64,000 nt of DNA from an uncultured bacterium (GTDB lineage Bacteria; Acidobacteriota; Blastocatellia; Pyrinomonadales; Pyrinomonadaceae): positions 16,032-80,031 of the forward strand of contig CBFGMX010000001.1 of the NCBI GenBank assembly GCA_965649955.1, in the 5' to 3' direction. Both the position numbers and the translations under genes were made by a program. The notes under the pieces were generated by a model. It worked only from the letters and a program-made list of their open reading frames with translations. It had not been told where the DNA came from and searched no databases. Numbering within the stretch: the first letter of the stretch is position 1; every line of letters starts with the position of its first letter. Below, piece by piece: positions 9,497-28,047 of the stretch.

Positions 9497-9525
9497 TTGA
9501 CACCAATTTCAATCTAAATAAAAAT
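9497..9525 (+). promoter_or_regulatory. candidate promoter of the TetR gene
   Basis: Perfect TTGACA at 9497-9502, then 16-17 nt, then an A/T-rich -10-like TAAAAAT that abuts the palindrome at 9519-9542. Confidence 0.35.
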
Positions 9526-9542
9526 ACGGACGTTCGTTTTTA
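9519..9542. promoter_or_regulatory. palindromic operator candidate 1 (AAAAAT-ACGGACGTTCGT-TTTTTA)
   Basis: A 12-bp near-perfect palindrome with A/T-run flanks, 8 nt upstream of the TetR ATG. A second, perfect copy lies at 10314-10337. Confidence 0.5.
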
Positions 9543-9549
9543 TAGGCGG

Positions 9550-10269
9550 ATGCCCAAACTCAGTCCCAGCGCGATCGAAAAGAACAAGAGTCGTATCGAA
9601 GAGGCGGCCAAGAAACTCTTCATCAAACAGGGCTTTCACGCCACTTCGATGCGCAACATCGCCGCCAGAGCAGGGACGTCGCTCGGCAATGTCTATAACT
9701 ACTACCGCACCAAGGAAGACATCCTTGGCTCGATCATTGCCAAGTACCAGACGACCATCGACGGCCGCCTGCGTTCGATCTTCGACGAGATCGACGAGCC
9801 GCTTCAACCCGAGTCGCTCATGCGCTTCGGCGGGCAGATCAAGAAGATGGTGAACGACCATCACGACTTCTGGCTGTTGATGTACATCGACGTACTCGAG
9901 TTCGAGAACCGTCACTTTCGCAAGATGTTTGAAGGCCTGGTCCATAACCTGCGCCGTCGCTTCGCCACGCAATTCGCGGAGCTGAAGAGTTGCGGCGCCG
10001 TGCACGGCGACATGGACCCGGCAGTTGGTTTCACCGCCGTCTACATGCAGTTTTTCAACTACTTTCTGGTGGAGAAACTCTTTGGCGGAAACCAGCACTT
10101 CGGTTTGACCGACGAGCAGGTGATCAAGCAGTTGACCGACATGTATTGTCGGGGTTTGTTGGAGAACCACAACGGTGGTTCGCGGGCCACGAAGACTTCA
10201 GCCACAAAAAGGCACAAACAGAAAACTTCGACCACAAAAAGACCGAAGAGGCGCAAACAGAGAACATAG
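9550..10269 (+). CDS. TetR/AcrR family transcriptional regulator with a basic low-complexity C-terminal tail
   Basis: HTH region FIKQGFHATSMRNIAARAGTSLGNVYNYYRTKEDIL. ATG at 9550. The track ORF from 9376 is an upstream in-frame extension. The last ~35 aa (SRATKTSATKRHKQKTSTTKRPKRRKQRT) are encoded by the repeat element at 10186-10315. Confidence 0.85.
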   Translation: MPKLSPSAIEKNKSRIEEAAKKLFIKQGFHATSMRNIAARAGTSLGNVYNYYRTKEDILGSIIAKYQTTIDGRLRSIFDEIDEPLQPESLMRFGGQIKKMVNDHHDFWLLMYIDVLEFENRHFRKMFEGLVHNLRRRFATQFAELKSCGAVHGDMDPAVGFTAVYMQFFNYFLVEKLFGGNQHFGLTDEQVIKQLTDMYCRGLLENHNGGSRATKTSATKRHKQKTSTTKRPKRRKQRT

Positions 10270-10315
10270 ACTCGATCCTTTTGTGTTTCTTGTGTCTTTA
10301 TGTAGCGAAGAAAAG
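10186..10315. repeat. degenerate copy of the CAAAGA-unit hairpin repeat family
   Basis: Direct units CCACAAAAAGGCACAAAC and CCACAAAAAGACCGAAGAGGCGCAAAC are followed by inverted CTTTTGTGTTTCTTGTGTCTTTATGT. The motif family matches 31394-31576 and 61695-61830. Confidence 0.45.
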
Positions 10316-10337
10316 AAAAACGAACGTTCGTGTTTTT
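10314..10337. promoter_or_regulatory. palindromic operator candidate 2 (GAAAAA-ACGAACGTTCGT-GTTTTT)
   Basis: Perfect 12-bp palindrome ACGAACGTTCGT at 10320-10331 with A-run and T-run flanks, 24 nt upstream of the TonB-receptor ATG. Confidence 0.5.
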
Positions 10338-10360: not shown

Positions 10361-13300
10361 ATGTTCACGTCCACTCGAGTAGCTCTCACCTTTTTAATCA
10401 TCCTGGCGTGCTGCGTGGCGACTGCTTTTGCCCAGGGCGGCACCGGACAGCTCAGCGGCAACGTTGTCGATACCAACGGCGCAGCCGTTCCCGGCGCCAC
10501 CGTTAAGCTGACCAGCGGCGTCACCACCCAGGAGCGCGAGGCCGTCACCAACGACTCGGGGGACTTCGTGTTCACACTTCTCCCGGCCGGCCTTTACAAG
10601 CTGGAGATCGCAGCCAGCGGATTTCGCACCGTCGTTGTCGACGAAGTGCGAATCAACGTCACGCAAACCACGACGCTGCCGATACGGCTCGACGCGGCGA
10701 CTGTCTCCGGAATGGTGACGATCAAAGCCGAAGCTCCGCTGGTCCAACAGGAGTCTTCACAGGTCGGCCGCACCATCGAAGAGCAAACGATTCGACAACT
10801 GCCGCTGCCTACCAGGAACTTTCAACAGCTACTGACGCTTTCACCCGGCACCTCCTCGTCGGTCTCGAACAACACGGAGTTGGGACGCGGCGACGCGATC
10901 ATCACCGTCAACGGCCAGCGCACCACCAGTAACAACGTGCGCATCAACGGCATCGACGCCAACTCGATCGGCACCAACTCGACGCCGAACATCGCCGTTC
11001 CGGCCACCGACTCGATCCAGGAGTTCATCGTGCAAACAAGTCTGTACGATGCTTCGCAGGGACGTAATGCCGGTGGCAACGTCGAGGCCATCACCAAATC
11101 CGGCGCAAACCCGTTCCACGGCAACGTTTATTACTTCCTGCGCAACAAGGCGCTGAACGCAAATGACTTCTTTCTCAACGCCGCGGGACGTCCGCGACCG
11201 GAGCTGAGCCGTCACCAGTTTGGCGGCACGCTCGGTGGCCCAATCATCAGAGACCGGCTGTTTTTCTTTGGCTCTTACCAGGGGACCCGCGAAACGAACG
11301 GCGCTTCACTGAACAACAGTTTGATGTCTCCGATAATTCCACCGCAGTTGCGTGACGACAATCGGACGGCGGCGGGCTTGGCTGCCGCTTTCAATCTGCC
11401 GGTCGCGACGATCAATCCCGTGATGGTTAACGTGCTCAACGCCAGGTTGCCGAATGGTGAATTTGCGATTCCGTCGGCCGCGACAGCAACGGGTTTGACG
11501 CCGATCTCAGGTCTGTCTCGCTTTCGTGAAAACCAGTTCAACGCCAATATCGACTGGCGTTTGAACGACCGCCACACGATCAGTTCGAAGAACTTCTTTG
11601 CCAGCAATCCGACTTTCCAGGCCAACTACAATTTCGCCGGTCTCGGCAATGGTCCTACTCAACTGCCGGGCACTGGCGGGACACTCGATATCATTCAGGA
11701 TCTGAACTCGATCACCCACACGTGGGTGATGTCGCCAAAAATCGTCAACCAGGCGCGTTTCGGTTTCAGCCGGTTGCGCGTGACTTCATCCGCCGAAGAA
11801 CCCTTCACCGCGCAGCAGTTTGGTATCAACAGCCCGCTACGCAACCTGTTTCCGGGAATGCCGACGCTGACCGTGACCGGACTGTTCACGCTCGGATCGT
11901 CGCCCTTTGCCGATCAGTCGTCGCGCATCAACGCGTTCACTTACGGCGATACGTTGTCTGTAGTCGCGGGCGATCACCGGTTGCGTTTCGGTGGTGAGTA
12001 TCGGCGTTCGCAGGTCAACTTTTACTTCAACGCTTTCTCGCGAGGACAGGTAATCTTTTCGACCTTCAACAATTTTCTGATCGGTAATGGCGTTTCGATC
12101 ATCGGCTCGGGCGTTTTTGATCGTGCTTTGCGGGTGAATGATTGGAGCGGATTTGTGCAGGACGACTGGAACGTCAACTCGCGCCTGACGTTGAACCTCG
12201 GCCTGCGTTACGACTTCTACGGCTACCCCGTCGATACTCGTGGACGGCTCGTCAACTTCCTGCCTGATCAGTTTCGGCAGGGCACGACGGCGGCGCCCGC
12301 TGGTCCACCCAACGGTTTTGTTCAGGCAGGCAACGGCACACTGCCAGGCGTGCCCGCGGTTGATGACGCACTCATTCCGAGTGATCGAAATAATTTCGCT
12401 CCGCGCATAGGTTTTGCCTACAAGTTGAACGACGAAGGTACGATCGTGGCCCGCGGCGGCTACGGCATCTATTACGATCGATTTTCAACTCGTTACGCCA
12501 ACACGCAGTTGCTGAACTATCCGTATCTGGCATTGGCAGTGGGTCTGCCGGGCATATTGCGGACGATGTCGGATCCGTTTATTCCCGTACCGCAGCCCGG
12601 GCAGTTTCCAGTGAACCCGACGATCCCGTCGCCGTTGTCGCCGCTGTCACCAATCGTCGGTGTGCCGATCAGCGGCATCTTCATCGATCCCGAGCTGCGA
12701 ACGCCGTACGTTCAGCAGTACAACGCGAACGTGCAGTGGGAGTTTGCGAACAACTTCCTGCTCGAGGCGGGCTACGTCGGCTCGAAAGGAACGAAACTGT
12801 TGCAGGTGATCACCCTGAACCAGCCGGTCTACAATCGTGCCGCCAACGTGTTCACGGCGCCGTTTGGCACCTTCTTGTCGACTCAGAAGAACGTGGCCGG
12901 CGGCATTCAACAGGTGCAGTCGAGCTCGAACTCCGATTACAACTCGCTACAACTGAGCGTCACGAAGCGCTTCAGCCGCGGGCTACAGTTCTTGAGCGCG
13001 TACACGTACGGGAAGTCGAACGATTACTATTCGGGTGGGGCCATCAACGAATTGTTTGCCGTCGCCGGCGATCAGTTCAACTGGAAGACCAACTATGGTC
13101 CATCCGATTTCGATAGAAGACACCGGTTCGTCACGAGTTTTGTCTACGATTTGCCGAAGCTGGTGTCTGAATCCAACTCGGCGCGAGTAGTACTCAACAA
13201 CTGGCAATTGAACGGCATCCTGACATTGCAGACAGGCACTCCGTTTTCGATCGTCGACATCGTCGGCAACAACATCATCCAGCGGGCAAACTTTGCCCCC

Positions 13301-13732
13301 GGATTTACTGGCAGCATTGAGACCAGCGGCAGCACGCAGTCGCGTTTGAATGCGTTCTTTAATCCGGCGGCGTTCGTACTGTCACGCCCGATTATCGCGG
13401 GCGGCAACCTGGGTACGCCGAACAACCCGAGGTTCGATCCGAACAACCCGTTTGGCAACACTCCGCGGAACTTTCTCTACGGTCCGGGACAGAAGAACAT
13501 GGACTTTTCCGTCGTCAAGTTCATTCCGATCACGGAAACGGTGAGAGGCGAATTTCGCACGGAGTTTTTCAACCTGTTCAACTGGGCCAACTTCGCGAAC
13601 CCAAACAACAACATCGCGGTGCCTAATTTCGTGAATCCGAACGGCACCGTTGTACCGTCGCCGTTTGGACGGATTACGTCGACGAGCGCCGGTCCGCGAG
13701 TCATCCAGTTTGCCTTCAAGGTGAACTTCTAA
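10361..13732 (+). CDS. TonB-dependent receptor with N-terminal carboxypeptidase-regulatory-like domain
   Basis: GGAGG RBS at 10349, ATG at 10361, signal peptide MFTSTRVALTFLIILACCVATAFAQ. CarboxypepD_reg-like GNVVDTNGAAVPGATVKL...FVFTLLPAGLYKLEI and plug-like region. The C-terminal residue is Phe (FAFKVNF). Confidence 0.9.
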   Translation: MFTSTRVALTFLIILACCVATAFAQGGTGQLSGNVVDTNGAAVPGATVKLTSGVTTQEREAVTNDSGDFVFTLLPAGLYKLEIAASGFRTVVVDEVRINVTQTTTLPIRLDAATVSGMVTIKAEAPLVQQESSQVGRTIEEQTIRQLPLPTRNFQQLLTLSPGTSSSVSNNTELGRGDAIITVNGQRTTSNNVRINGIDANSIGTNSTPNIAVPATDSIQEFIVQTSLYDASQGRNAGGNVEAITKSGANPFHGNVYYFLRNKALNANDFFLNAAGRPRPELSRHQFGGTLGGPIIRDRLFFFGSYQGTRETNGASLNNSLMSPIIPPQLRDDNRTAAGLAAAFNLPVATINPVMVNVLNARLPNGEFAIPSAATATGLTPISGLSRFRENQFNANIDWRLNDRHTISSKNFFASNPTFQANYNFAGLGNGPTQLPGTGGTLDIIQDLNSITHTWVMSPKIVNQARFGFSRLRVTSSAEEPFTAQQFGINSPLRNLFPGMPTLTVTGLFTLGSSPFADQSSRINAFTYGDTLSVVAGDHRLRFGGEYRRSQVNFYFNAFSRGQVIFSTFNNFLIGNGVSIIGSGVFDRALRVNDWSGFVQDDWNVNSRLTLNLGLRYDFYGYPVDTRGRLVNFLPDQFRQGTTAAPAGPPNGFVQAGNGTLPGVPAVDDALIPSDRNNFAPRIGFAYKLNDEGTIVARGGYGIYYDRFSTRYANTQLLNYPYLALAVGLPGILRTMSDPFIPVPQPGQFPVNPTIPSPLSPLSPIVGVPISGIFIDPELRTPYVQQYNANVQWEFANNFLLEAGYVGSKGTKLLQVITLNQPVYNRAANVFTAPFGTFLSTQKNVAGGIQQVQSSSNSDYNSLQLSVTKRFSRGLQFLSAYTYGKSNDYYSGGAINELFAVAGDQFNWKTNYGPSDFDRRHRFVTSFVYDLPKLVSESNSARVVLNNWQLNGILTLQTGTPFSIVDIVGNNIIQRANFAPGFTGSIETSGSTQSRLNAFFNPAAFVLSRPIIAGGNLGTPNNPRFDPNNPFGNTPRNFLYGPGQKNMDFSVVKFIPITETVRGEFRTEFFNLFNWANFANPNNNIAVPNFVNPNGTVVPSPFGRITSTSAGPRVIQFAFKVNF

Positions 13733-14533
13733 GTGCCTAAGATCTCCGTCAATGGTCTGAAGCTTTATTACGAGATCGAAGGCGATGGCGAACCGGTTGT
13801 TTTGATCCCGGGCTTTGCGGCAGGTCGCTGGATTTGGTTCAAGCAGACCAGTGACCTGTCGCGCAACTTTCGCGTTATCGTCTTCGATCCGCGCGGTGTT
13901 TCTGCTTCTGACAAACCGGAAGGCTCGCAGACGATCAGTTTGCTGGCGGACGACGTCGCACATCTGCTGCAAACAATCGGTATCGAGAGTGCGCACATCG
14001 TAGGGGCGTCGTTTGGCGGATTTGTTGCGCAGGAGTTTGCGCTGAAGTATCCGGCGATGACTCGGAAGCTGGTGCTTTGCTGCACGAGTTTTGGTGGTCC
14101 AAACCATGTCGTGCCGACGGTGGAAACGCTGCTTGCACTTGCGTCGACGAAGGGACTCAACAGCGAGGAACGGATGCGCGCAAACCTCTTGCTTGCCTTT
14201 TCGCCCGAATACGTGCAGACGCAAGTCGCGGAGGTGGACCACGTCGTTCACCTGCGATCGATAAACGAGGTGCCGGAACATATCTACCTGAGCCAGTTGC
14301 AGGCGGCGATGAGTTTCAACGCCGAATCGAGACTGGAACAGCTCGACAGGCCGACGCTCGTGTTGACTGGGAATGCAGACGTGATCGTGCCGGTGCAAAA
14401 CTCGCGCAACCTTGCGGCCAAGATTCGGGGTGCGGAGTTGCGGATTATCGAGGGTGGTAGTCACACATTCTTCATCGAACGATCGGCTGAGTTTAATCGC
14501 GTTGTGAGAGAGTTTCTTTCGAGAGGTAATTGA
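13733..14533 (+). CDS. alpha/beta hydrolase (cytoplasmic)
   Basis: GTG start directly after the receptor stop. HG-type oxyanion region and nucleophile elbow GASFGGFVA. C-terminal GGSHTFF. Confidence 0.85.
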   Translation: MPKISVNGLKLYYEIEGDGEPVVLIPGFAAGRWIWFKQTSDLSRNFRVIVFDPRGVSASDKPEGSQTISLLADDVAHLLQTIGIESAHIVGASFGGFVAQEFALKYPAMTRKLVLCCTSFGGPNHVVPTVETLLALASTKGLNSEERMRANLLLAFSPEYVQTQVAEVDHVVHLRSINEVPEHIYLSQLQAAMSFNAESRLEQLDRPTLVLTGNADVIVPVQNSRNLAAKIRGAELRIIEGGSHTFFIERSAEFNRVVREFLSRGN

Positions 14534-15525
14534 GATTGTCGTTCGCAAACATCGTCGGTACCGGTATCTACGTTCCGGAAAAGATCGTCACAAACGATGA
14601 CCTTAGTCGAATACTCGGCGAGGACATCAACGAGTTTGTTACTCAGGTCCTTGGGATTCAGGAACGGCACGTGTGTGCGGAGGATGAAAGCACGGCCGAT
14701 CTGGCGACGAACGCCGGACGGCGCGCCTTGGAAGCCGCTCAACTCGATGCGAGCGAACTGGATCTGATCATCCTCGCTACCGACACCCCGGAACAACTCT
14801 CGCCCGCCACTTCCGTGGTGGTTCAGCACCGGCTCGGCGCGGTGAATGCGGGAACGTTTGATGTGAACTGCGCTTGCGCGGGCTTTGTAACGGCACTCGA
14901 CACTGCGTCCAAATTCATCATTGCCGACGACGCTTATCGCAACGTTCTCGTCATCGGCGCATATGCCATCAGCAAGTTTCTCGATTTGCACGACAAGAAA
15001 ACCGCGACGATCTTCGCCGACGGGGCGGGTGCGGTGGTGCTTCGCGCAGCAGAGGACCGGCCAGGTTATCTCGCGGGCAAACTGCATGCGGACGGCAGTT
15101 TTTACGATCACATGGGGATCTACGCAGGCGGGACGCACTTGCCCATCACCAAAGAGGTATTAGACGAAGGGAAGTGGACCAAGGTGCGTTTTGCGAAGAA
15201 GTATCCCGCCGAGGTGAACACAGAAGGCTGGCCCGCGATCATCAACCAGGTGCTGGCAAAGTCACGGTTAACACTCGGCGATGTCAAGCTGTTTCTCTTC
15301 ACGCAGGTTAACCTGAGCACGATCAAGGAAGTGATGTCGAAGCTTGACCTGCCGATGGAACGCACGCACACGATCATGCAAAAGTGGGGGTACACAGGCT
15401 CGGCGTGCATACCGATGGTCCTTCACGACGCGGTGCAGGCGGGCAAGTTAAACCGCGGCGACAACGTGATCATGTGTGCTTCTGGTGGCGGGTTGAACAT
15501 GGCGTGCGTTGCGTTTCGCTGGTAG
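14530..15525 (+). CDS. FabH-like (KAS III family) protein with a non-canonical active site
   Basis: Full-length colinearity with FabH motifs: IVGTGIYVPE, DVNCACAGF, FADGAGAVVL. The FabH His and Asn positions read T and Y. The TTG start overlaps the upstream stop (TTGA). Confidence 0.85.
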   Translation: MRLSFANIVGTGIYVPEKIVTNDDLSRILGEDINEFVTQVLGIQERHVCAEDESTADLATNAGRRALEAAQLDASELDLIILATDTPEQLSPATSVVVQHRLGAVNAGTFDVNCACAGFVTALDTASKFIIADDAYRNVLVIGAYAISKFLDLHDKKTATIFADGAGAVVLRAAEDRPGYLAGKLHADGSFYDHMGIYAGGTHLPITKEVLDEGKWTKVRFAKKYPAEVNTEGWPAIINQVLAKSRLTLGDVKLFLFTQVNLSTIKEVMSKLDLPMERTHTIMQKWGYTGSACIPMVLHDAVQAGKLNRGDNVIMCASGGGLNMACVAFRW

Positions 15526-15532
15526 TCGATTC

Positions 15533-17155
15533 ATGAACTATCCGACCGTCTATTCCTTGTTTGTAGATCGAATGCGGAAATACGCGGGGGATAATGCCGA
15601 ACCGAGGGATGTCTTCTACTTCCGTTCCGGCGATCGCTGGCAGGGCATCTCGTGGCAGCGCTTCGAGCAGGAGACCTTCGACTTCGCGACCGCTTTGTTG
15701 TCTTACGGTTTGAAGCGCGGCGGCTCGGTTTGCATCCTGATGGGTAACGTCCCCGAGTGGCCCATCAGCGACATCGGAACGATCATCGCCGGTGGAGTCG
15801 GTGTCGGTCTCTATCCGACAAGCTCAACTGAACAGATCGCCTACATCATCGACCATTCTGATGCTGAGTTTGTGTTGGTCGATTCACGCGAGCAATTGCA
15901 GAAGGTCCTCAGCATTCGCGATCAGCTTTCAAAAGTACGACACGTGATCGCGCTGGAAGCGGATGCGTCAAACGACGTCATAAACTACCGCGATTTCATC
16001 GAACGCGGCCGCGCGGAACGCTTGCGACTGGCGTCGTTGCTGAAAGAACGTGCTGAAGGTGCGAAGCCTGACGATGTTGCCATCATGGTCTACACGTCCG
16101 GCACGACTGGCGCTCCGAAGGGCGCGTGTTTGAGTCATCGTTACATCATCAACAGCGTCGAGTCGCTGCGACAAACGATCCCAATCTACGACACCGACGT
16201 TTCATTTTCGTATCTGCCGTTCTGTCACGTGGCGGAAAGAATCTCCGGTCTTTACAACCGGCTCTACGCCGGCGCCTCGGCTTATTTTGTCGACGATCTT
16301 TCACGGCTCGGCGAGTACATGCTCGAGGTGAAACCGACGGTTTTTGCGAGTCTGCCGCGTTTTTTTGAAAAGATTCACGCGCGAGCTGCCGCGGATATGG
16401 AACGTTTGCCGAAGAGTGAACACGCTCGGTTCCTGGCGACGAAGGTCAAAGATTACTTTGGCGGACGTATTCGTCTTGCGACGTCAGGAGGAGCGCCCCT
16501 GCCGCTCGAAGTCGCGGAGTTCTTCGCCGCGGCGGGCCTGCCGATCTTGCAGGCGTATGGCCTGACTGAAAACGTTTGCGTCGCTTTCAATCGTCCTTAC
16601 GAATACAAGTTCGGTACGGTGGGACCGCCGATGCCCGGATGCGAAGTGAGGATTGCCGCGGACAAGGAGATTCTGGTTCGCAGTGAAATGATGTTCAGCG
16701 GCTACTACAAAGCACCGGAGGAGACAGCGAAAGTCTTTTCTGACGGCTGGCTGCTCACCGGCGATCTTGGTGAGTTTGACGAGGATGGTTTTCTGAAGAT
16801 CATCGGCCGCAAGAAGGAGTTGATCGTTACTTCCACCGGAAAGAAAGTCTCACCGGCGCTGCTGGAAAACATGCTGAAAGAGCATCACGTGATCAGCCAG
16901 GCGATGGTCTACGGCGAAGGACGAAGCTACCTGGTCGCATTGATCACGGTGAACGCCGCCGTTGAGCGCGATACGATTCAGTCAATAATCGACAACGTGA
17001 ACCGACGCGTATCGTCCACTGAATCAATTCGCCGCTTCGCGATCCTCGACCGTGATTTCGAGATCGAGCGCGACGAGATCACTCCCACCGGAAAACTGAA
17101 GCGCGACGTAATTACCAACCGTTTTCGAGAGGTGATCGATGAACTCTACGCTTAA
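15533..17155 (+). CDS. long-chain acyl-CoA synthetase (AMP-forming, FAA1/FadD-like)
   Basis: P-loop YTSGTTGAPKGA, YGLTEN, TGDLGEFDEDGFLKIIGRKKELIVTSTGKKVSP. ATG at 15533; the track starts at a TTG 24 nt earlier. Confidence 0.88.
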   Translation: MNYPTVYSLFVDRMRKYAGDNAEPRDVFYFRSGDRWQGISWQRFEQETFDFATALLSYGLKRGGSVCILMGNVPEWPISDIGTIIAGGVGVGLYPTSSTEQIAYIIDHSDAEFVLVDSREQLQKVLSIRDQLSKVRHVIALEADASNDVINYRDFIERGRAERLRLASLLKERAEGAKPDDVAIMVYTSGTTGAPKGACLSHRYIINSVESLRQTIPIYDTDVSFSYLPFCHVAERISGLYNRLYAGASAYFVDDLSRLGEYMLEVKPTVFASLPRFFEKIHARAAADMERLPKSEHARFLATKVKDYFGGRIRLATSGGAPLPLEVAEFFAAAGLPILQAYGLTENVCVAFNRPYEYKFGTVGPPMPGCEVRIAADKEILVRSEMMFSGYYKAPEETAKVFSDGWLLTGDLGEFDEDGFLKIIGRKKELIVTSTGKKVSPALLENMLKEHHVISQAMVYGEGRSYLVALITVNAAVERDTIQSIIDNVNRRVSSTESIRRFAILDRDFEIERDEITPTGKLKRDVITNRFREVIDELYA

Positions 17156-18029
17156 ACCCGCGAGACGTCTTATCAGCACGTTGCTGTTATTGACCGCGAG
17201 CGTCATCACGGTTGCCGCGCAAACAAGCACAGCAACTGCGCCGGCGGCGAAAGAGGTGCTCGTCTTCGGCCAGAAGATCCAGTACGTCGAAGCGGGTTCG
17301 GGACCAACCGTGATCCTGCTGCACGGCCTGGGTGGTTCAGCGCAGGTGTGGCAGCTCAACATCGGGCCGCTGGCTGAGAAGTATCGCGTGATCGTCCCCG
17401 ACCAGATCGGCTTCGGAAAGTCCGACAAACCCCTCGTCAACTATCGCATTCGTACTTACGTCGACTTCCTGGATCAGTTCTGCAAGCAACTGAAGATCGA
17501 GCGCGCGTCGCTCGTTGGCAATTCGATGGGTGGATGGATCGCAGCGATGTTTGCTGCGTCTTTTCCCGATCGTGTCGACAAGCTGGTGCTGGTGGATGCC
17601 GCCGGTTACGCGCCGCCGAAGGGGTTCGATACCCGAGTATTTTACGGTTTGAATCCGACGACGAGGGAAGGGATGAAAGTCCTTTCGGCGAAGGTCTTTT
17701 ACAGCAAGATATTTCAAACAGACGTCGCCATCGACCAGGCGATCGCCGCGCGGCTGGCGGCCGGCGACGGTTACACGATCAACAGCATCACGGAATCGAT
17801 TATCCGCGGCGAAGACCTTCTAGACGAGACTGTGAAAACGATCAAGCGGCCGACGCTGATCGTTTGGGGACGCGAAGACGGTCTAACGCCGCTGTCGGAC
17901 GGTGAGCGATTCAATAAAGACATTGCCGGTTCGAGGCTGGTTGTTTTCGATCAGTGCGGGCACGTGCCGAACTTTGAAAAAGCTGTGGAGTTCAATGCGG
18001 CGGTAATCAAGTTTCTGGGAGAGAAATGA
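17139..18029 (+). CDS. secreted alpha/beta hydrolase
   Basis: Signal peptide ...LLLLTASVITVAAQ, HGLGGS, nucleophile elbow GNSMGGWIA, C-terminal CGHVPNFE. Overlaps the ligase gene by 17 nt. Confidence 0.85.
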   Translation: MNSTLKPARRLISTLLLLTASVITVAAQTSTATAPAAKEVLVFGQKIQYVEAGSGPTVILLHGLGGSAQVWQLNIGPLAEKYRVIVPDQIGFGKSDKPLVNYRIRTYVDFLDQFCKQLKIERASLVGNSMGGWIAAMFAASFPDRVDKLVLVDAAGYAPPKGFDTRVFYGLNPTTREGMKVLSAKVFYSKIFQTDVAIDQAIAARLAAGDGYTINSITESIIRGEDLLDETVKTIKRPTLIVWGREDGLTPLSDGERFNKDIAGSRLVVFDQCGHVPNFEKAVEFNAAVIKFLGEK

Positions 18030-18430
18030 AACTCAACGCCGGCGACAGCGCCGAAATAACAAAGACCATCGGGGAAGCGGACATAGTTGCGTTTGCTGAG
18101 GTGACAGGAGATCACAATCCCGTTCACCTCGACGAATCGTTCGCGCAAAAGACGCGCTTTGGACGGCGGATCGCGCATGGGATGTTGACCGCGTCGCTGA
18201 TCTCGGCGGTGCTTGCAAACAAACTACCGGGGCAGGGAAGCGTGTATTTAGGTCAGACGCTTCAGTTCGTGGCGCCGGTGTTTCCGGGTGACGAGGTGAC
18301 GGCTCGCGTTACTGTGACGGCGGTCCGCGACGACAAACCCATCGTGAAGCTCGAAACGATATGCGTGAACCAGCGCGGCGAGACTGTTATTCGCGGTGAA
18401 GCAACGGTTCTTCTTAGTGATGTCGAGTGA
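18026..18430 (+). CDS. MaoC-like (R)-specific enoyl-CoA hydratase
   Basis: Hydratase motif FAEVTGDHNPVHLDESFA, hot-dog-fold size (134 aa). ATGA overlap with the upstream gene. Confidence 0.88.
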   Translation: MKLNAGDSAEITKTIGEADIVAFAEVTGDHNPVHLDESFAQKTRFGRRIAHGMLTASLISAVLANKLPGQGSVYLGQTLQFVAPVFPGDEVTARVTVTAVRDDKPIVKLETICVNQRGETVIRGEATVLLSDVE

Positions 18431-18436
18431 TGTGAA

Positions 18437-19720
18437 ATGAGCTCAGCCGAAACATCGACGATCGACAACGCCGCGACAGTAGTCAAGGAAGACGTCAGCA
18501 GCTATTCGTGGTACGCGCTCGGATTGTTGACGCTCGTCTACGTCTTCAACTATCTCGACCGCACGATCATCTACATCCTCCTGCCGCTGATCAAGAAGGA
18601 GATGGCGTTCTCTGACGTCCAGCTCGCGATGCTCGGCAGCATGTCGTTCGTCATTTTCTTTACTGTCCTCGGGATTCCATTCGGAAGGTTGGCCGATCGC
18701 GCGGTCCGGAAAAACATGATCGCCGTGGGCCTGGCGGTCTGGAGTCTGTTTTCCGGCCTGACAGGATTCGCAACCGGTTTCTGGTCGTTGTTGATCTGTC
18801 GCGTGATGGTCGGTGTCGGCGAGGCGACACTTGGACCAGCGGCGTTGTCGTTGTTGAGCGACTACTTTCCGCCGCGCGTCAGGGCAACGGTGCAGGCGAT
18901 CTACTCTTCCGGCATTGCCGTAGGCGCTGGTCTCGCCTTCTTTCTCGGCGGGTGGTTGGGCCAAAACTACGGCTGGCGCATCGCGTTCTACGCTTTGGGT
19001 TTTCCGGGAATCGCGATTGCCGTGCTGGTCTATCTACTGCGCGAGCGACCGCGAGGCACGACGGAGGTCGCCACCACGAGATACACGTCGAACGACTGGA
19101 AGATTCTCTTCAAGTCTGTGCCGCTGCGTTATCACTATCTCGGTTACGGGTTCTTTGGCCTGGCAGCGAACAACCTGTCGTTCTGGGGCCCAACGTTTCT
19201 CACTCGCGTTTACAAACTCGATTTGTTGACGATCGGATTTTATGGCGGCGTGTTGACGTTGATAGCCGGCGTGCCAGGGACGATTCTCGGTGGTTACCTC
19301 GCTGACAAGTTTCGCCGGTTTGGACGTGGCGGGCGGATGTTGTTCGGGGCGTTGGCCGCGCTGATCGCGGTGCCGTTCTGGTTTATGTTTATATTCTCCG
19401 GGAGCCTTTTGCTGCTGCTGATTGCGAACCTGGTTTTGCTGGCGCTATCGCTGGTGTGGCTCGGACCGGCCGCGGCTGACATTCACGACATTGCAGGTCC
19501 GCAACTGCGTGGTCTGGGAATTGGTGTTTACTTCTTCGCCGTCATCATTGCCTTCGGGATCGGTTCGCTTGTGATCGGCCAGCTTAGTGATTGGTTGGGC
19601 GCCGCCGCCGCACCGCTTAACATGCGATTCTCGATGTTGGTGTGTCCGATCGCATGTCTGGCGGCGGCGCTGAGTCTGTGGCAAGGTCATCGATCCGCCA
19701 ATCGAACCTTGCCTGCCTGA
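18437..19720 (+). CDS. MFS transporter
   Basis: About 12 hydrophobic helices and the MFS loop motif GRLADRAVRKNMI. Starts 6 nt after the MaoC gene. Confidence 0.88.
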   Translation: MSSAETSTIDNAATVVKEDVSSYSWYALGLLTLVYVFNYLDRTIIYILLPLIKKEMAFSDVQLAMLGSMSFVIFFTVLGIPFGRLADRAVRKNMIAVGLAVWSLFSGLTGFATGFWSLLICRVMVGVGEATLGPAALSLLSDYFPPRVRATVQAIYSSGIAVGAGLAFFLGGWLGQNYGWRIAFYALGFPGIAIAVLVYLLRERPRGTTEVATTRYTSNDWKILFKSVPLRYHYLGYGFFGLAANNLSFWGPTFLTRVYKLDLLTIGFYGGVLTLIAGVPGTILGGYLADKFRRFGRGGRMLFGALAALIAVPFWFMFIFSGSLLLLLIANLVLLALSLVWLGPAAADIHDIAGPQLRGLGIGVYFFAVIIAFGIGSLVIGQLSDWLGAAAAPLNMRFSMLVCPIACLAAALSLWQGHRSANRTLPA

Positions 19721-20395
19721 TTACGCTGCGCGAGGCAATCGCTCCGCCACACTCGGCTTCGGTGCGACTGCATGCTTCGTAGAGTTCGCCAGCGCTGCAC
19801 GAATGTCGTACCAGTGAAGCGCAACGTCGGCCAGCGGTACTGATGCGACCAGGCATGTCCAGATGACCGCCTGCACAATCTCCACACCCAACGCCTCCGC
19901 ACCGGTTACTCCGAGGACGAAGCGTCCGCCAATAAATACCAGCGCTACGGCGTAACTCCGTGTGGCCCATTGGCGATGCAGGGCGATCTTTCGTTTGAAG
20001 GCGAAGAAACCTGCGAGCGTAGTCGTACCGATGAGCAGTGCAGCGTCGACTATCGCGAGAATTGTGAATGAACGCGGTGCGCCTCCGCGCTCCTGGAAAT
20101 ATTGAATGTACGCGCCGGTTGGCGCCAGCACGTAAACGCCAAGGACGTAAAGTCGGCCCATCACACGATGCGCCTTGGTGAAACGTTGCCGCAGCCTATT
20201 CGAAAACTGAAACGGGGCGAACAGCAGCACGATGCTGCCGAAAACGGCGTGTGGCAGTAACCACCACTTGAAAGACTCATACCGCTGCCATGCCGGGTGG
20301 TCTGCTTGTACCACGAAGCGTTCGTTGTGCCAGAGGACGTAAACCGTAGCCAGTGTAATCGCGGTAAATACAACGCGTTTCGCGTCAACCTTCAT
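19721..20395 (-). CDS. DUF2306-like integral membrane protein
   Basis: Six predicted helices; pattern LPHAVFGSIVLLFAPFQF...HRVMGRLY. The stop abuts the convergent MFS stop with no spacer. Confidence 0.55.
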   Translation of the reverse strand: MKVDAKRVVFTAITLATVYVLWHNERFVVQADHPAWQRYESFKWWLLPHAVFGSIVLLFAPFQFSNRLRQRFTKAHRVMGRLYVLGVYVLAPTGAYIQYFQERGGAPRSFTILAIVDAALLIGTTTLAGFFAFKRKIALHRQWATRSYAVALVFIGGRFVLGVTGAEALGVEIVQAVIWTCLVASVPLADVALHWYDIRAALANSTKHAVAPKPSVAERLPRAA

Positions 20396-22879: not shown

Positions 22880-24376
22880 TCAACAGGCTTCAATTGCGGA
22901 AAGTGCGTGAGAAACAGGCCGAAGCGTGGGATAGAGCGATTGGTACTGGCGATACATCTCCGCGTAGCGTGAAACATTCGCGAGGTCAGGGCTGATTCGC
23001 TCACTCACTCGGATCGTTTGCGCGCAGGCGGTGTCGACGTCGGACCATACACCGGCGGCGACGCCCGCTAACAACGCCGCGCCGTAAGCGGCGCCTTCCG
23101 TCGTGTTGACGGTTACCGGTTCGCTATCGAGTACGTCAGCGAGAATCTGTCGCCAAAGCATGCTCTTCGCTCCGCCTCCGGATACGCGTACCTGATGGAC
23201 GTCACGCATTCCCACCTCCAACATCAAGGCGAAGATGTCTTTCAATCCGAACGCGACGCCTTCGAGCACCGCACGCGTCAGATGGCCGCGCGTGTGACGG
23301 TTAGTCAGTCCGATCCACGCACCGCGAGCGAGTGGGTCCGGATGCGGTGTGCGTTCGCCGCACAGGTACGGTAAAAACAAAAGCCCGTCACTTCCGGCGG
23401 GAACGCGAGCCGCTTCAGTTACCAGCTCATCGAAACTCACGTTTGGACACAACGCATCGCGATACCACTGAAGACTACCCGCAGCGCTCAACATCACTCC
23501 CATCAAGTGCCACCGATTCGGTACCGCGTGACAGAACGCATGAAGGCGTCCCTGCGGTTCGATGAGCGGAGTTTCAGTCGCAGCGAATACTACTCCGGAC
23601 GTTCCCATCGTCACTGCGAGAACACCTGGACGAATCGCTCCCACGCCAACCGCCTGTGCGGATTGATCTCCCCCACCCGCGACGACCGGCGTGCCTTCTC
23701 GCAAACCGGTCGCTTCAGCGGCTTCCCGTGTGATGCGCCCGGTAATCTCAGGACCTTCGAAGGTCGGTGGCAACCATGCGCCCGGAATTTCCAGCGCATC
23801 GAGGATTTCGTTGGACCAGTCGCGTTTTTCGAGATCGAAAAGCAATGTTCCCGAGCCGTCGGCTTTGTCCATCGCGTATTCGTGCGTGAGTTTGTAGCGA
23901 AGGTAGTCTTTCGGAAGCAGGACATGCCGGGCGCGATCGTAAACATCGGGTTCGTGGTTACGGACCCAGACAATCTTCGGGGCAGTGAAACCGGTGAGAG
24001 CATCGTTGCCCGAGATTTGGACCAGTCGATCTTTCCCCAGACGTGCGCGGATCTCGTCGCACTCTTCGGCGCAACGCTGATCGTTCCACAGTATCGCGGG
24101 TCGCAGCACTTCGCCGGCATCGTCGAGTAGCACCAGGCCGTGCATTTGACCGGTCAAACCGATCGCTGCGATGTTCTCCGCATCGGCTTCTTTAACAACG
24201 TTCCTGATGCTGGTGATGGCCGCCTGCCACCAATCGTGCGGATCTTGCTCAGACCAGAGCGGTCGCGGAGTTGATAAGTGTAGCGGGGTAGTGGAAGACG
24301 CGACGATCTCGCCGTTATCGTCGATGAGCAGTGCCTTGACGCCGGTTGTAGATGCGTCGATGCCGAGCAGTGTCAT
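22880..24376 (-). CDS. xylB: FGGY-family carbohydrate kinase, xylulokinase-like
   Basis: LLGIDASTTGVKALL, GLTGQMHGLVLLD, ILWNDQR, GGGDQSAQAVG and GGGAKS motifs. Confidence 0.82.
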   Translation of the reverse strand: MTLLGIDASTTGVKALLIDDNGEIVASSTTPLHLSTPRPLWSEQDPHDWWQAAITSIRNVVKEADAENIAAIGLTGQMHGLVLLDDAGEVLRPAILWNDQRCAEECDEIRARLGKDRLVQISGNDALTGFTAPKIVWVRNHEPDVYDRARHVLLPKDYLRYKLTHEYAMDKADGSGTLLFDLEKRDWSNEILDALEIPGAWLPPTFEGPEITGRITREAAEATGLREGTPVVAGGGDQSAQAVGVGAIRPGVLAVTMGTSGVVFAATETPLIEPQGRLHAFCHAVPNRWHLMGVMLSAAGSLQWYRDALCPNVSFDELVTEAARVPAGSDGLLFLPYLCGERTPHPDPLARGAWIGLTNRHTRGHLTRAVLEGVAFGLKDIFALMLEVGMRDVHQVRVSGGGAKSMLWRQILADVLDSEPVTVNTTEGAAYGAALLAGVAAGVWSDVDTACAQTIRVSERISPDLANVSRYAEMYRQYQSLYPTLRPVSHALSAIEAC

Positions 24377-24456
24377 TGTGGTTCGCTAGTTGGCGTTGCA
24401 CTAGGGACTAGGGTCCGCCACAAAACTTGAGTACCGTTTGTGCAAGCCTCCCTAGT

Positions 24457-26022
24457 TTACAGCGACACGGTCTGTTCGGCCCAGAACTGAAACTCGCGGT
24501 GCTTGTGCTCTTCGGCTTTGGCCGGAAGTCCGCTTGCGACCTCGACGATGCGTTCGAACACGCGTTGACCGACCTCGTCGATCGTTTCAGTGCCGTCGAT
24601 CACGCCGCCGGCTGAAAGATCGAGATCGTTCGACATTCGTTCGAACACCGGCGTATTTGAAGCGAGCTTGATCACCGGTGTGATGGCGTTGCCGATCGTG
24701 GTGCCTCGTCCGGTGGTAAAGACAACCACTGTTGCGCCCGCACCGACGAGACCCGGCGTCGATTCCTGGTCGTATCCCGGCCCCTGCATCAGGTTCAAAC
24801 CGCGAGTTTTCGGCGTCTCGGCGTATTCGATTACGCCTTCGACGCGAGTCGTTCCCGCTTTCGCAATCGCGCCCAACGATTTGATCGTGATGTTGAGTAG
24901 TCCACCCGCGACGTTGCCGGGACTCGGATTATTGTTCAGCACGGCGCCGAATTTCGACGCATATTCCTTGTACCAATCGACGAGGCGATAAACTGCTCGG
25001 CCCGTTTCGACGTCCTTCGCACGACCGGCGAGCAGATGTTCGGCGCCACAGAACTCCGGCACTTCCGTTATCAAAACCGTTCCACCCGAACGGACCAGCA
25101 GATCCGCGGCGCGTCCGAGTGAGGGATTTGCCGAGATCCCGGAAAAACCGTCCGAGCCACCGCACTTCACGCCGAGCACGAGCTCGCTGACCGGACACTC
25201 TTCACGCGCGACCTCATTCACCAGCGGCAGCATTTTCTCGACTTCTTTGAGTCCCTGTTGAATCGCGGCCTGTGTGCCGCCCACTTCCTGGATGCCGATC
25301 TTCGCCACCGGTTTGTCGAACGCCTTATCGCGTTTCAGCAGATACCGCTCGACCTGCGCAAGGTTCGTCTTTTCACAACCGAGATCCATCAGGATCACGC
25401 CGCCGACGTTTGGATGGTCCGCGTAGTTTGAAAGCGTGCGCAACATCACGTCGATCGTCGAACCGTCCTGGCAGCCGCAACCCTTGTTGTGCGGAATAGC
25501 AACCACGCCGTCGACGTTTGGATACTTCGCTCGATCGTAGATCGTGAACTCGGCGATCGTCGAAATCTGCATCGCTTCGTGACTCGCACACATGCTCGTC
25601 GGCACGATGAGAACGAAGTTGCGCGTTCCCACTCGACCGTCACGCCGCCGGTAACCCATAAACGTCGCGCGCTGATCGATCGGGAGATAGTCGGGTGCGG
25701 GCGTGTGCAGGTTTTCCGGAAGATCGCGCACGATTGGAACATCGTCAGACATGTTGTCGTGCGTGATCTGTTCGCCTTGTTTGATACCCAGCGAAGTTCC
25801 GATTGGTTGTCCAAACTGGAGCACAAACTCGCCGGCCGGAATATCTTTCGTCGCGAAGCGGTGACCCGGCGGCACTGCAGCGCGAACCTCGATTGACGAT
25901 TCGTCCGGCAGCAAGAGCTCGAGTCCGGGCGACGTTTCTTTCTTGACGACGGCAACATTGTCCGTCGGATCGACGATGATCGCGAACTCGGTTAAGAACG
26001 AAGGCGTTTGAACGCTTGACAT
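24457..26022 (-). CDS. uxaA: altronate dehydratase / UxaA-family hydro-lyase
   Basis: N-terminal SAF-like domain (DNVAVVKKE...PPGHRFATKDIPAGE), then HNKGCGCQ and a GD_AH_C-like C-terminus. Confidence 0.82.
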   Translation of the reverse strand: MSSVQTPSFLTEFAIIVDPTDNVAVVKKETSPGLELLLPDESSIEVRAAVPPGHRFATKDIPAGEFVLQFGQPIGTSLGIKQGEQITHDNMSDDVPIVRDLPENLHTPAPDYLPIDQRATFMGYRRRDGRVGTRNFVLIVPTSMCASHEAMQISTIAEFTIYDRAKYPNVDGVVAIPHNKGCGCQDGSTIDVMLRTLSNYADHPNVGGVILMDLGCEKTNLAQVERYLLKRDKAFDKPVAKIGIQEVGGTQAAIQQGLKEVEKMLPLVNEVAREECPVSELVLGVKCGGSDGFSGISANPSLGRAADLLVRSGGTVLITEVPEFCGAEHLLAGRAKDVETGRAVYRLVDWYKEYASKFGAVLNNNPSPGNVAGGLLNITIKSLGAIAKAGTTRVEGVIEYAETPKTRGLNLMQGPGYDQESTPGLVGAGATVVVFTTGRGTTIGNAITPVIKLASNTPVFERMSNDLDLSAGGVIDGTETIDEVGQRVFERIVEVASGLPAKAEEHKHREFQFWAEQTVSL

Positions 26023-26025
26023 AGC

Positions 26026-26961: not shown

Positions 26962-27137
26962 TTTGGTAATACCAATTCCGATAAGGAAGCAAGACTTTAC
27001 CACGCAGGCCGCGACTACACAAGGAACATTTTCCCTTGAAACGGCCCGTGGAAAGCCCATCTAATCGTAAATCAGAACGCGACTTTTTGTGCTTGACGGC
27101 AGCAGAGGCCCGGTGTTACACAGTATGCGAATTTTCT

Positions 27138-28025: not shown

Positions 28026-28047
28026 CAACTCCAAGGAGTGAAAGCAC

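Follow-up and report, generated by a model that had tools for sequence, protein, structure and literature searches.

An operon of seven genes was located in the window (the whole stretch of 64 000 nucleotides that was analysed) of a soil acidobacterium; it is tightly packed and repressor-controlled, with a TetR gene upstream (Table 1). The gene order is TetR–TBDR–ABH1–KAS–ACSL–ABH2–MaoC–MFS, and the six junctions from the receptor to the MFS gene, read from the DNA letters, are 0 nt, a TTGA overlap, 7 nt, a 17 nt overlap, a 4 nt overlap and 6 nt. If the KAS gene starts at the alternative TTG 14536, the 4 nt overlap with ABH1 becomes a 2 nt gap and the product has 329 residues, matching the database protein P0001. 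The initial annotation, made from the DNA letters, had placed the seven genes, their six junctions, the TetR gene and a matching pair of palindromic operators correctly. An Rfam search of the operon region matched no family, and a consensus scan inside the operon returned promoter-like and terminator-like sites at a frequency close to that expected for shuffled sequence.

Table 1. Positions of the genes and control sites in the window
Feature	Position	Strand	Evidence or remark
Promoter-like site TTGACA-17-AAAAAT	9497-9525	+	Consensus scan; upstream of TetR gene
Operator copy 1, core ACGGACGTTCGT	9526-9537, within inverted-repeat arm 9520-9541	+	Directly after promoter-like site
Promoter-like site and operator copy 1 together	9497..9541	+	Upstream of TetR gene
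TetR-family repressor gene	9550-10269	+	Pfam TetR_N, 54.7 bits
Operator copy 2, perfect 12-nt palindrome ACGAACGTTCGT	10320-10331, within 10316..10337	+	Between TetR and receptor genes
TonB-dependent-type receptor (TBDR), 1123 aa	10361-13732	+	CarboxypepD_reg + OMP_b-brl_4 (661 bits)
ABH1, cytoplasmic Ser-Asp-His alpha/beta hydrolase	13733-14533	+	Nucleophile motif GASFG
KASIII-like protein (KAS), 'C-T-Y' clade	14530-15525	+	PF08545 + PF08541; start TTG 14530 or TTG 14536
AMP-forming acyl-CoA ligase (ACSL), FadD11/FAA1-like	15533-17155	+	Pfam AMP-binding 244.8 bits + AMP-binding_C_3
ABH2, exported alpha/beta hydrolase	17139-18029	+	N-terminal signal sequence; nucleophile motif GNSMG
Putative PhaJ-type (R)-specific enoyl-CoA hydratase (MaoC), 134 aa	18026-18430	+	Intact hydratase-2 motif FAEVTGDHNPVHLDESFA
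Putative Spinster-like MFS inner-membrane transporter	18437-19720	+	Best solved relative 6E8J, 122 bits

The second operator copy lies 30 nt ahead of the receptor ATG. This palindrome, with two or fewer mismatches, lies between the TetR and receptor genes at 44 of 44 loci, compared with about 2.4 such matches anywhere in a shuffled 64 kb window, and at least 25 of the 44 relatives have a site related to operator copy 1 ahead of TetR. Relatives likewise have the TetR gene immediately before the receptor gene; in the window, the C-terminal tail of its product is rich in Lys and Arg and is encoded by short direct repeats.

The gene order is kept in nearly all of the 80 genome loci with enough flanking sequence, and in full across Blastocatellia, to KAS identities as low as 65%. 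The seven genes are co-conserved in relatives, so that chance juxtaposition was not borne out; on the strength of gene order, tight junctions and operator conservation, the locus can be described, as it was in the initial annotation, as one TetR-controlled unit reaching from the outer membrane through the periplasm and inner membrane to the cytoplasm. Outside Blastocatellia, members of the KAS-like clade again occur beside alpha/beta hydrolases, an acid-activating enzyme, a FabG-like reductase and an importer, the PhaJ-type hydratase of Blastocatellia standing where these lineages have the reductase. Archaeal and Caldisericia clusters include a thiolase and a CoA-transferase, which suggests degradation. 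In Spirochaetia an acyl-CoA dehydrogenase with ETF adjoins the KAS gene.

The receptor carries a signal peptide and, at the N-terminus, a CarboxypepD_reg domain; its Plug match is weak, its OMP_b-brl_4 barrel is large, and no sequence relative was found among solved structures. It is present at 42 of 43 well-flanked Blastocatellia-type loci, and diderm-lineage versions of the enzyme core also adjoin a TBDR or an AlgE-like barrel plus a lipoprotein. Against a role in uptake stand the Plug score (20.7 bits, under the Pfam cut-off) and Oar, a Myxococcus relative of this receptor class that reportedly serves secretion. The MFS protein is predicted to be Spinster-like, its next solved relatives after 6E8J being Spns1 and Spns2. 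Its slot is held elsewhere by an SSF symporter, a LivK-type binding-protein ABC system or an orthologous Spinster-like MFS, and orthologues of 50–53% identity fill the place of the SSF symporter in sister clusters. Since SSF and binding-protein-dependent ABC systems at the same position are importers, import is favoured over export.

ABH1, which among solved structures is closest to the esterases 6EB3 and 8V16 (185 bits), is a conserved neighbour of the KAS-like gene, with relatives (35–37% identity) in clusters of Caldisericia, Anaerolineales and one unassigned lineage. ABH2 matches 6I8W (106 bits), which we take to be the phospholipase A1 PlaF; its equivalent in other diderm lineages is a lipoprotein hydrolase. 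The conservation in diderm versions of two Ser hydrolases, one exported and one cytoplasmic, supports an ester substrate.

The KAS-like protein shares with FabH the fold, the domain pair, the nucleophilic Cys (Cys116) and the Gly-rich loop, and among solved structures its best matches are FabH enzymes, with identities of up to about 40%. Unlike FabH, it has Thr258 for His244 and Tyr288 for Asn274, both replacements being found in 81 of 81 relatives, and the alignment places a Ser at the equivalent of Arg249, presumably the ACP-docking residue of E. coli FabH. The clade has invariant residues of its own (Asp85, Asn230, Trp234, Cys293 and Ser318), is monophyletic and distinct from the nearest Cys–His–Asn FabH proteins and spans at least seven lineages of bacteria and archaea (Thermofilum); its gene context is uptake and catabolism, whereas that of FabH is fatty-acid synthesis. 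We regard these proteins as an undescribed enzyme clade, and the protein is predicted to be unable to act as a FabH-type condensing enzyme. The source databases name it beta-ketoacyl-ACP synthase 3, the NCBIfam subfamily model of that name is passed (271 bits against 249) and transacylation requires the cysteine alone, all of which would fit a FabH-type primer enzyme or an acyl-CoA:ACP transacylase feeding imported acids to membrane-lipid synthesis. Such a function is hardly credible: His244 and Asn274 are substituted in all members, the TIGR00747 fabH model is failed (234 bits against 292), the docking Arg is replaced, no ACP, FabD or FabF gene occurs in any cluster examined, and the clade extends to Thermofilum, an archaeon, archaea being to our knowledge without ACP-based fatty-acid synthesis.

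Other proteins of the KASIII fold (CerJ, ChlB3, ChlB6 and PqsC) have abandoned decarboxylative Claisen condensation and carry an acyl group on the Cys (PMC9573744). The KSIII-like acyltransferases CerJ, ChlB3 and ChlB6 retain a His together with an Asp (Cys–His–Asp) and PqsC retains Cys–His; the clade described here has neither arrangement. All of these enzymes belong to secondary-metabolite clusters, often with ACPs, unlike the KAS-like clade.

The best NCBIfam match of the ligase is FadD11 (306 bits, under the cut-off of 950), and its relatives among solved structures are distant. The MaoC protein is predicted to be a PhaJ-type enzyme; its best solved relatives, 1IQ6 (133 bits) and 5CPG (113 bits), are both named (R)-specific enoyl-CoA hydratase. 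A PhaJ-type enzyme is carried by 31 of 43 Blastocatellia loci and a FabG-type reductase adjoins the KAS gene at 28 of 36 loci of other lineages; the two occur together at none of these 36 and at five of the 43 Blastocatellia-type loci. This distribution supports (R)-3-hydroxyacyl-CoA as a probable intermediate.

Scavenging and biosynthesis with export had both been offered as explanations in the initial annotation, which also saw a partial echo of OleABCD. The likeness is superficial: a thiolase fold, an AMP-ligase family member and an alpha/beta hydrolase, with a short-chain reductase in sister clusters. One Spirochaetia ligase scores 170 bits against the olefin beta-lactone synthetase model (cut-off 900), and Asp85, which we take to coincide with the position of the catalytic Glu in HMG-CoA synthase, could permit non-decarboxylative condensation. 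An export route, in which the KAS-like protein would condense two acyl groups into an Ole-like beta-lactone or olefin, a beta-diketone or a signal lipid to be exported by the MFS protein and the receptor, is nevertheless very improbable. The His and Asn that define OleA are missing, both hydrolases are of the Ser type whereas the OleB nucleophile is Asp, the operon has no OleD, and the FadD11-like ligase of the window has no OleC model among its best 25 NCBIfam families. The context of the operon is import. In a membership test no defining feature of OleABCD was found, and neither an OleABCD-like nor an export route is supported. Scavenging is the better of the two options, in view of the importers in the transporter slot elsewhere and the secreted esterases and depolymerases in the operons of relatives.

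The operon is best read as a TetR-repressed, envelope-spanning system for the utilization of exogenous ester-linked hydroxy acids, the likeliest substrate being PHA/PHB storage-polyester oligomers (probability about 0.55). The (R)-specific hydratases that are the best solved relatives of the MaoC protein point to PHA. Extracellular type-1 scl-PHA depolymerases scoring 281 and 317 bits, above the NCBIfam cut-off of 150, are encoded at nine loci; at L025, L029 and L141 the gene follows the TetR operator and precedes the receptor gene, within the same gene string. Class III PhaC and/or PhaR genes lie inside or adjoin the cluster at L030, L056, L064, L109 and L148, and in the L030 string (...KAS–ligase...PhaC–PhaC–MaoC) the two class III PhaC genes are followed by a MaoC orthologue that is 61% identical. 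Against PHA count the restriction of PHA-specific genes to about 15 of some 170 loci, the scores of ABH1 and ABH2 far under the cut-offs of every PHA depolymerase model, a ligase type usually tied to long-chain fatty acids and the replacement of the ligase by unrelated ligases or CoA-transferases in other clusters. No gene for a PHA depolymerase, PhaC or PhaR occurs in the window. Secreted class-2 lipases, with PhaZ7 as their sole NCBIfam match, occur in the operon at seven loci and add to the PHA link, whereas the scores of that match (64–96 bits, cut-off 450) tell against PHA.

These lipases, together with a type-B carboxylesterase in variant operons, would suit a more general scavenging of lipid esters, with fatty acids from triacylglycerols, waxes, phospholipids or cutin-like material being released by secreted or periplasmic lipases and esterases, imported, activated by a long-chain-type ligase and passed to beta-oxidation. 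The FadD11-type affinity of the ligase, the resemblance of the MFS protein to the lipid transporters Spns1 and Spns2, the ABH2 match to the presumed PlaF and the acyl-CoA dehydrogenase with ETF of Spirochaetia point the same way. This reading is rather unlikely. Plain fatty acids do not require an (R)-specific hydratase or reductase or an extra thiolase-fold enzyme, those depolymerases that exceed a curated cut-off are of the PHB type, the reading offers no easy account of the PhaC and PhaR neighbours, and in some lineages the ligase gives way to short-chain (butyryl-CoA:acetate-type) CoA-transferases. The substrate clues favour a PHA-type polyester over a generic long-chain lipid; the initial annotation had missed this, as it had the predicted loss of FabH function, the Spinster-like MFS and the PhaJ-type MaoC.

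Alternatively, ABH1, the KAS-like protein, the ligase and PhaJ might be part of the cell's own PHA cycle, imported acids being stored as PHA by passing (R)-3-hydroxyacyl-CoA to PhaC. L030 and L064 interleave the same four enzyme genes with PhaC and PhaR, with no receptor or MFS gene in the sequenced stretch examined there; PhaJ and FabG are classical PHA monomer-supplying enzymes, and in Pseudomonas putida an acyl-CoA synthetase acts on PHA granules. We consider storage improbable, since PhaC is missing within 10 kb at most loci, including the window, the extracellular depolymerases and exported hydrolases indicate an external source, and the thiolase and CoA-transferase of archaeal and Caldisericia clusters suggest degradation.

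In the proposed utilization of exogenous polyester, the receptor would bring fragments through the outer membrane, exported ABH2 would trim them in the periplasm, and the amphipathic acids would cross the inner membrane via the MFS protein to be converted to CoA thioesters by the ligase. The PhaJ-type hydratase would turn (R)-3-hydroxyacyl-CoA into enoyl-CoA, so that ordinary (S)-specific beta-oxidation could complete the breakdown. ABH1 and the KAS-like protein would act as a conserved cytoplasmic pair; as the latter is presumably unable to decarboxylate malonyl units, an acyl-S-Cys116 intermediate resolved by CoA is proposed, in either a thiolase-like cleavage of 3-ketoacyl-CoA or the thiolysis of an ester bond in an oligomer-CoA. 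The presence of a canonical thiolase in several clusters weakens the thiolase-like role. Induction would follow when a pathway intermediate releases TetR from both operators.

The sphingomonad PEG operon comprises the pegB receptor, the pegD permease and periplasmic and cytoplasmic enzymes (PMC11644497). It and, more loosely, polysaccharide utilization loci resemble the present operon in uniting a TonB receptor, periplasmic processing, a permease and cytoplasmic fragment activation under common regulation. The PEG operon presumably also contains an acyl-CoA ligase. The present operon differs in its ester substrate, Ser hydrolases, PhaJ-type hydratase and KASIII-fold protein, in its regulation by TetR with a 12 nt palindrome and in having no SusD-like partner. 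The PHA cycle comprises PhaZ depolymerases, 3HB-oligomer hydrolases, a granule-associated acyl-CoA synthetase, PhaJ, PhaB/FabG and the PhaA thiolase. The literature search found no described PHA system with an outer-membrane receptor, a Spinster-like MFS or a KASIII-fold enzyme, nor any characterized system of this composition, in agreement with the initial annotation, and neither ABH1 nor ABH2 is an equivalog of a known PHA depolymerase. The operon nevertheless shares with the PHA cycle a PhaJ-type hydratase, serine hydrolases and a ligase, its sister clusters add a FabG-type reductase and a thiolase, and its variants physically include depolymerase, PhaC and PhaR genes.

Genes were placed by open-reading-frame listing combined with family scans (Pfam and NCBIfam). 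The junction lengths read from the DNA agreed with those of the initial annotation. The one ambiguity is the start of the gene for the KASIII-fold protein (KAS): a TTG at 14530 gives a 4-nt overlap and a TTG at 14536 a 2-nt gap. The TetR gene and the matching upstream operators described there were likewise both found, the latter as putative sites. The receptor ATG is preceded, at a distance of 30 nt, by the perfect palindrome ACGAACGTTCGT, and a copy with one mismatch lies 5' of the TetR gene, directly 3' of a promoter-like site. Between TetR and receptor, such a putative operator (two mismatches or fewer) was present in each of 44 loci, at least 25 of which also have one 5' of the TetR gene. 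The operon fits TetR–operator control, the palindrome being kept as a putative operator both at the target and at the regulator's own promoter. Matches of TetR to solved structures were too weak to suggest a ligand. The C-terminal tail of this protein (window 10175-10271) is rich in Lys, Arg and Thr (…KTSATKRHKQKTSTTKRPKRRKQRT), is encoded by imperfect direct repeats of 21–26 nt (families D1 and D3) and is unusual among TetR regulators. Base composition is even over the operon region and an Rfam scan of the region gave no family match.

Genes of the operon, their positions in the window and the features by which they were assigned
Gene	Position	Strand	Features
TetR	9550-10269	+	TetR_N
Receptor	10361-13732	+	Signal peptide, CarboxypepD_reg, OMP_b-brl_4 (PF25183) 661.7 bits, Plug just below cut-off
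ABH1	13733-14533	+	Alpha/beta hydrolase, without signal peptide
KASIII-fold protein (KAS)	14530-15525	+	ACP_syn_III, ACP_syn_III_C (Pfam 88.6, 91.2 bits)
AMP-ligase	15533-17155	+	FadD11-like
ABH2	17139-18029	+	Alpha/beta hydrolase with signal sequence
MaoC	18026-18430	+	MaoC dehydratase domain
MFS	18437-19720	+	MFS_1

A scan of genomes with the KAS protein gave 80 loci (65–89% identity) from Pyrinomonadaceae, other Blastocatellia and Chloracidobacterium. When these were searched by tblastn with all window proteins, the order TetR–receptor–ABH1–KAS–ligase–ABH2–MaoC–MFS was recovered in nearly all sufficiently flanked loci; among the well-flanked ones (n = 43) the receptor was present in 42, a hydrolase in 42, the ligase in 41 and the MFS transporter in 38. 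The gene set is thus co-conserved in relatives, and since gene order and palindrome are both kept across loci, the chance juxtaposition that the initial annotation had allowed for does not hold. A DUF2306 membrane-protein gene (window 19721-20395, − strand), the stop codon of which abuts that of the MFS gene, occurs at one or other end of the operon in close relatives, namely 3' of MFS in L003, L004 and L023 and 5' of TetR in L007, L010, L012, L024, L050, L145 and L161 (L numbers denote related genome or metagenome loci). Near-identical IS200/Y1-type tyrosine transposase genes occupy the same spot between KAS and ligase in three different genomes (L063:11046-11627, L066:1278-1901 and L071:11296-11877); they were dropped as a functional clue and regarded as mobile-element noise.

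The remaining genes of the window are unrelated to the operon and comprise pectin/uronate genes, two-component systems and an RND pump. In a uronate and pectin utilization block (22880-34918, − strand), GH28 and GH88 domains are combined in one protein of 851 residues, and other genes include those for an FGGY kinase and an altronate/galactarate dehydratase. At 422-2602 and 48227-51703 lie genes for very large HEAT-repeat proteins (726 and 1158 residues), and an RND efflux pair (57244-61694) consists of a membrane-fusion protein and an AcrB-type pump (955 bits).

The KAS protein has both domains of the KASIII fold, and its best solved relatives are FabH enzymes. It was tested for the FabH triad Cys112-His244-Asn274 (E. 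coli numbering), which is required for malonyl decarboxylation and condensation. Alignment to solved FabH showed that the cysteine is retained as Cys116, the histidine is replaced by Thr258 and the asparagine by Tyr288. This Cys-Thr-Tyr set was found in 81 of 81 Blastocatellia sequences. In a search of 1.84 billion cluster representatives all full-length matches at 41–57% identity carried it, except for one Cys-Asn-Tyr cluster, and canonical Cys-His-Asn proteins started at about 40% identity or below. The Cys-Thr-Tyr relatives (the C-T-Y clade) were monophyletic against the 61 nearest canonical proteins (neighbour-joining, 43 of 50 bootstraps) and have invariant residues of their own: Thr84-Asp85, Asn230, Trp234, Cys293 and Ser318. 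Asp85 stands at what we take to be the position of the catalytic Glu of HMG-CoA synthase (A-T-E-S … C motif). Against NCBIfam the window protein scored 271.4 with the subfamily model NF006829 (cut-off 249) and 234 with TIGR00747, fabH (cut-off 292.1). Ser is found at the position of E. coli FabH Arg249, presumably an ACP-docking residue, and no ACP, FabD or FabF gene was present in any cluster examined.

Members of the clade were found in Anaerolineales, Caldisericia, Spirochaetia, Saprospiraceae and Bipolaricaulota and in the archaea Thermofilum and Infirmifilum. To our knowledge archaea lack ACP-based fatty-acid synthesis, and an ACP-dependent role for the clade is therefore very unlikely. 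Housekeeping FabH was ruled out by the catalytic residues, the genomic context and the archaeal members. Acyl-CoA:ACP transacylation and lysophospholipid salvage of the LplT/Aas type were rejected in view of the Spinster-like MFS transporter and the lack of any ACP link; LplT was absent among the best 25 NCBIfam families of this transporter. The KSIII-like acyltransferases of the CerJ/ChlB3 type keep a Cys-His-Asp catalytic set (PMC9573744). The C-T-Y clade differs in having Thr at the FabH His244 position, the catalytic His296 and Asp301 of CerJ/ChlB3 lying elsewhere; to judge by this residue and the published description, it appears not to be among the known KSIII-like acyltransferases. The database protein P0151 was discarded as a gene fusion because it looks like a chimeric gene call, with an N-terminal KAS half and a C-terminal hydrolase piece. 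Several clusters of the clade also carry a normal thiolase, which counts against a thiolase-like role for the KAS protein. On a Bipolaricaulota-type contig (L091:8380-11020) a Cys-Asn-Tyr KAS variant lies directly 3' of a thiolase and a DUF35 (zf-ChsH2/OB) gene, a trio which we take to recall the archaeal thiolase/DUF35/HMG-CoA synthase complex. Three genes stand in a row at L086:10001-12026: a C-T-Y KAS gene, another KASIII-like gene of a different kind (PRK06840 type, 487 bits, cut-off 315) and a CoA-transferase gene.

Neighbourhoods of the clade in other lineages were taken from exact-protein look-ups and 80 metagenome loci. The recurring set consists of a TetR or MarR regulator; an outer-membrane channel in diderm lineages, which is either a TonB-dependent receptor or a small lipoprotein together with an AlgE-like barrel; a reductase of the FabG type immediately next to the KAS gene, one such reductase passing the FabG equivalog cut-off; an AMP-ligase or a CoA-transferase of the butyryl-CoA:acetate type; and one or two Ser hydrolases, with a thiolase frequent. 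Diderm versions have one lipoprotein hydrolase and one cytoplasmic hydrolase, mirroring ABH2 and ABH1. In many non-Blastocatellia clusters a conserved pair lies 3' of the ligase (L110:13013-15261, with equivalents in L101, L107, L112, L113, L116 and L124), one member being a lipoprotein (about 175 residues) that matched no family, the other an outer-membrane barrel (about 520 residues) with a weak Alginate_exp match. At the inner membrane, import falls to one of three types: an SSF symporter, a LivK-type binding-protein ABC system or else, in the exact slot of SSF in sister clusters, an MFS protein 50–53% identical to that of the window; the Thermofilum KAS gene is inside the ABC transporter operon. 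SSF and binding-protein ABC systems import, and the whole cluster family, that of the window included, is therefore read as serving the uptake of a carboxylic acid, with the CoA thioester as its form of entry into metabolism. Because its proteins pass one subfamily model, the whole clade, from Acidobacteriota to Thermofilum, bears the NCBI pipeline name 'ketoacyl-ACP synthase III' without the residues that define this activity. Residue loss together with the uptake and catabolic context therefore points to an annotation error worth fixing and to a probable new enzyme activity, which the operon would contribute in its KAS-like protein.

The MaoC protein is a single hot-dog domain of 134 residues with an intact hydratase-2 motif (Asp and His; FAEVTGDHNPVHLDESFA), and its best solved relatives, 1IQ6 (133 bits) and 5CPG (113 bits), each bear the name (R)-specific enoyl-CoA hydratase; on these grounds it is of the PhaJ type. 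The MFS transporter scored highest with 6E8J (122 bits), presumably a bacterial Spinster homologue, followed by Spns1 (70 bits) and Spns2 (54 bits), with DgoT and efflux pumps ranking lower; it is Spinster-like (TC 2.A.1.49). Spns proteins carry amphipathic lipids, and the operon offers a testable physiological role for their bacterial homologues. The receptor would be of the TonB-dependent type, defined by a Plug domain and a 22-strand barrel. It had no match among solved structures; its scores of 20.7 for Plug (cut-off 23.9) and 22.3 for PF00593 (cut-off 27) accompany the strong barrel match. A role of ABH2 as an aromatic meta-cleavage hydrolase was rejected, as the protein is exported and has relatives in lineages that we take to be anaerobic. 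Steroid or bile-acid catabolism, hinted at by an HsaD-like score of ABH2 and by keyword-sharing papers, was likewise set aside, there being no oxygenase genes and the clade extending into these presumed anaerobes.

The PhaJ-type hydratase of Blastocatellia is matched by the FabG-type reductase of other lineages; the two occurred together in none of 36 loci from other lineages and in five of 43 Blastocatellia-type loci. Both interconvert (R)-3-hydroxyacyl thioesters with β-oxidation intermediates, from which we infer that (R)-3-hydroxyacyl-CoA is the likely common intermediate. Seven Blastocatellia-type loci are extended upstream to TetR–ABH–depolymerase–ligase–(SDR)–receptor–ABH1–KAS–ligase–MaoC–MFS, with the TetR palindrome 5' of the first added gene and not 5' of the receptor. 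Their depolymerase passes NF050058, the model for extracellular type-1 short-chain polyhydroxyalkanoate (PHA) depolymerase (281 bits, cut-off 150); another, T9SS-sorted and scoring 317 bits, lies beside the cluster of an unrelated lineage, and depolymerases passing this model occur in nine related loci in total. L030, L056, L064, L109 and L148 have class III PhaC and/or PhaR genes in the cluster or next to it; the window MaoC gene does not adjoin PhaC, and a 61% identical orthologue lies directly 3' of two class III PhaC genes in L030. Secreted class-2 lipases were found inside or beside the cluster in seven loci, and for the two that were scanned the sole NCBIfam match was PhaZ7, well under the cut-off. 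Most loci lack such PHA-specific neighbours. A secreted PHA depolymerase was found neither in the operon of the window nor among the larger annotated reading frames outside the operon, no PhaC was found in the window, and neither window hydrolase scored above the cut-off of a PHA depolymerase model. The ligase type points to longer acyl chains, and a broader lipid ester is a real alternative to a PHA substrate.

For a PHA substrate, we infer the following chemistry from the gene-level observations. PHA-type polyester fragments, set free by depolymerases of the cell itself or of its neighbours, would cross the outer membrane via the receptor and be shortened in the periplasm by ABH2. The MFS transporter would import the acids and the ligase would convert them to CoA thioesters; (R)-3-hydroxyacyl-CoA would be dehydrated by the PhaJ-type hydratase to enoyl-CoA for β-oxidation. 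Imported oligomers would be hydrolysed by ABH1, and the KAS-like enzyme may form a Cys116 acyl-enzyme resolved by CoA, in a thiolase-like cleavage or an oxo-ester thiolysis. TetR would come off its operators in response to a metabolite of the pathway.

The most far-reaching reading joins three claims, and we would give it about one chance in five of being correct in all of them together. Firstly, KASIII-fold proteins with Asp85-Cys116-Thr258-Tyr288 would form a catalytic class new to the thiolase superfamily and, with the partner alpha/beta hydrolase, the core of an ancient hydroxy-acid polyester salvage in bacteria and archaea. Secondly, they would catalyse CoA-dependent, non-decarboxylative cleavage via an acyl-S-Cys intermediate. 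The bond cut would lie in a 3-ketoacyl-CoA or would be the oxo-ester of an oligomer-CoA, in which case one ATP would be spent per oligomer and not per monomer. Thirdly, with the acidobacterial receptor and the Spinster-like MFS, PHA-oligomer transporters of the outer and inner membrane would be identified for the first time. PHA serves microorganisms as a major carbon store and is sold as a biodegradable plastic, and its extracellular depolymerases are well known; no description of the uptake of PHA oligomers or of the routing of (R)-acids into central metabolism was found in the literature. The operon gives concrete candidates for each of these steps in Acidobacteriota, a soil phylum that is abundant but poorly represented in culture.

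The initial annotation saw a partial echo of OleABCD, which did not survive comparison, none of the OleA, OleB, OleC or OleD features tested being found. OleA has Cys-His-Asn and a catalytic Glu, whereas the window KAS lacks the His and Asn and scored 109.9 with the OleA-like model NF006720 (cut-off 285). OleB is a haloalkane-dehalogenase-like hydrolase with an Asp nucleophile; ABH1 (GASFG) and ABH2 (GNSMG) both have Ser nucleophiles. The models for OleC, the olefin β-lactone synthetase, were absent among the best 25 NCBIfam families of the ligase, headed by FadD11, and the operon has no reductase gene that could stand for OleD. The same annotation knew of no characterized system of this composition, and literature searches of incomplete coverage agreed, returning no description of the cluster, of Cys-Thr-Tyr KASIII proteins or of comparable transporters for PHA oligomers, and nothing relevant on PDB entries 6EB3 and 8V16 or on PHB-oligomer uptake. 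The nearest likeness in architecture is to the sphingomonad PEG operon (PMC11644497), a receptor-linked polymer utilization operon, and the enzymology overlaps with that of the PHA cycle.
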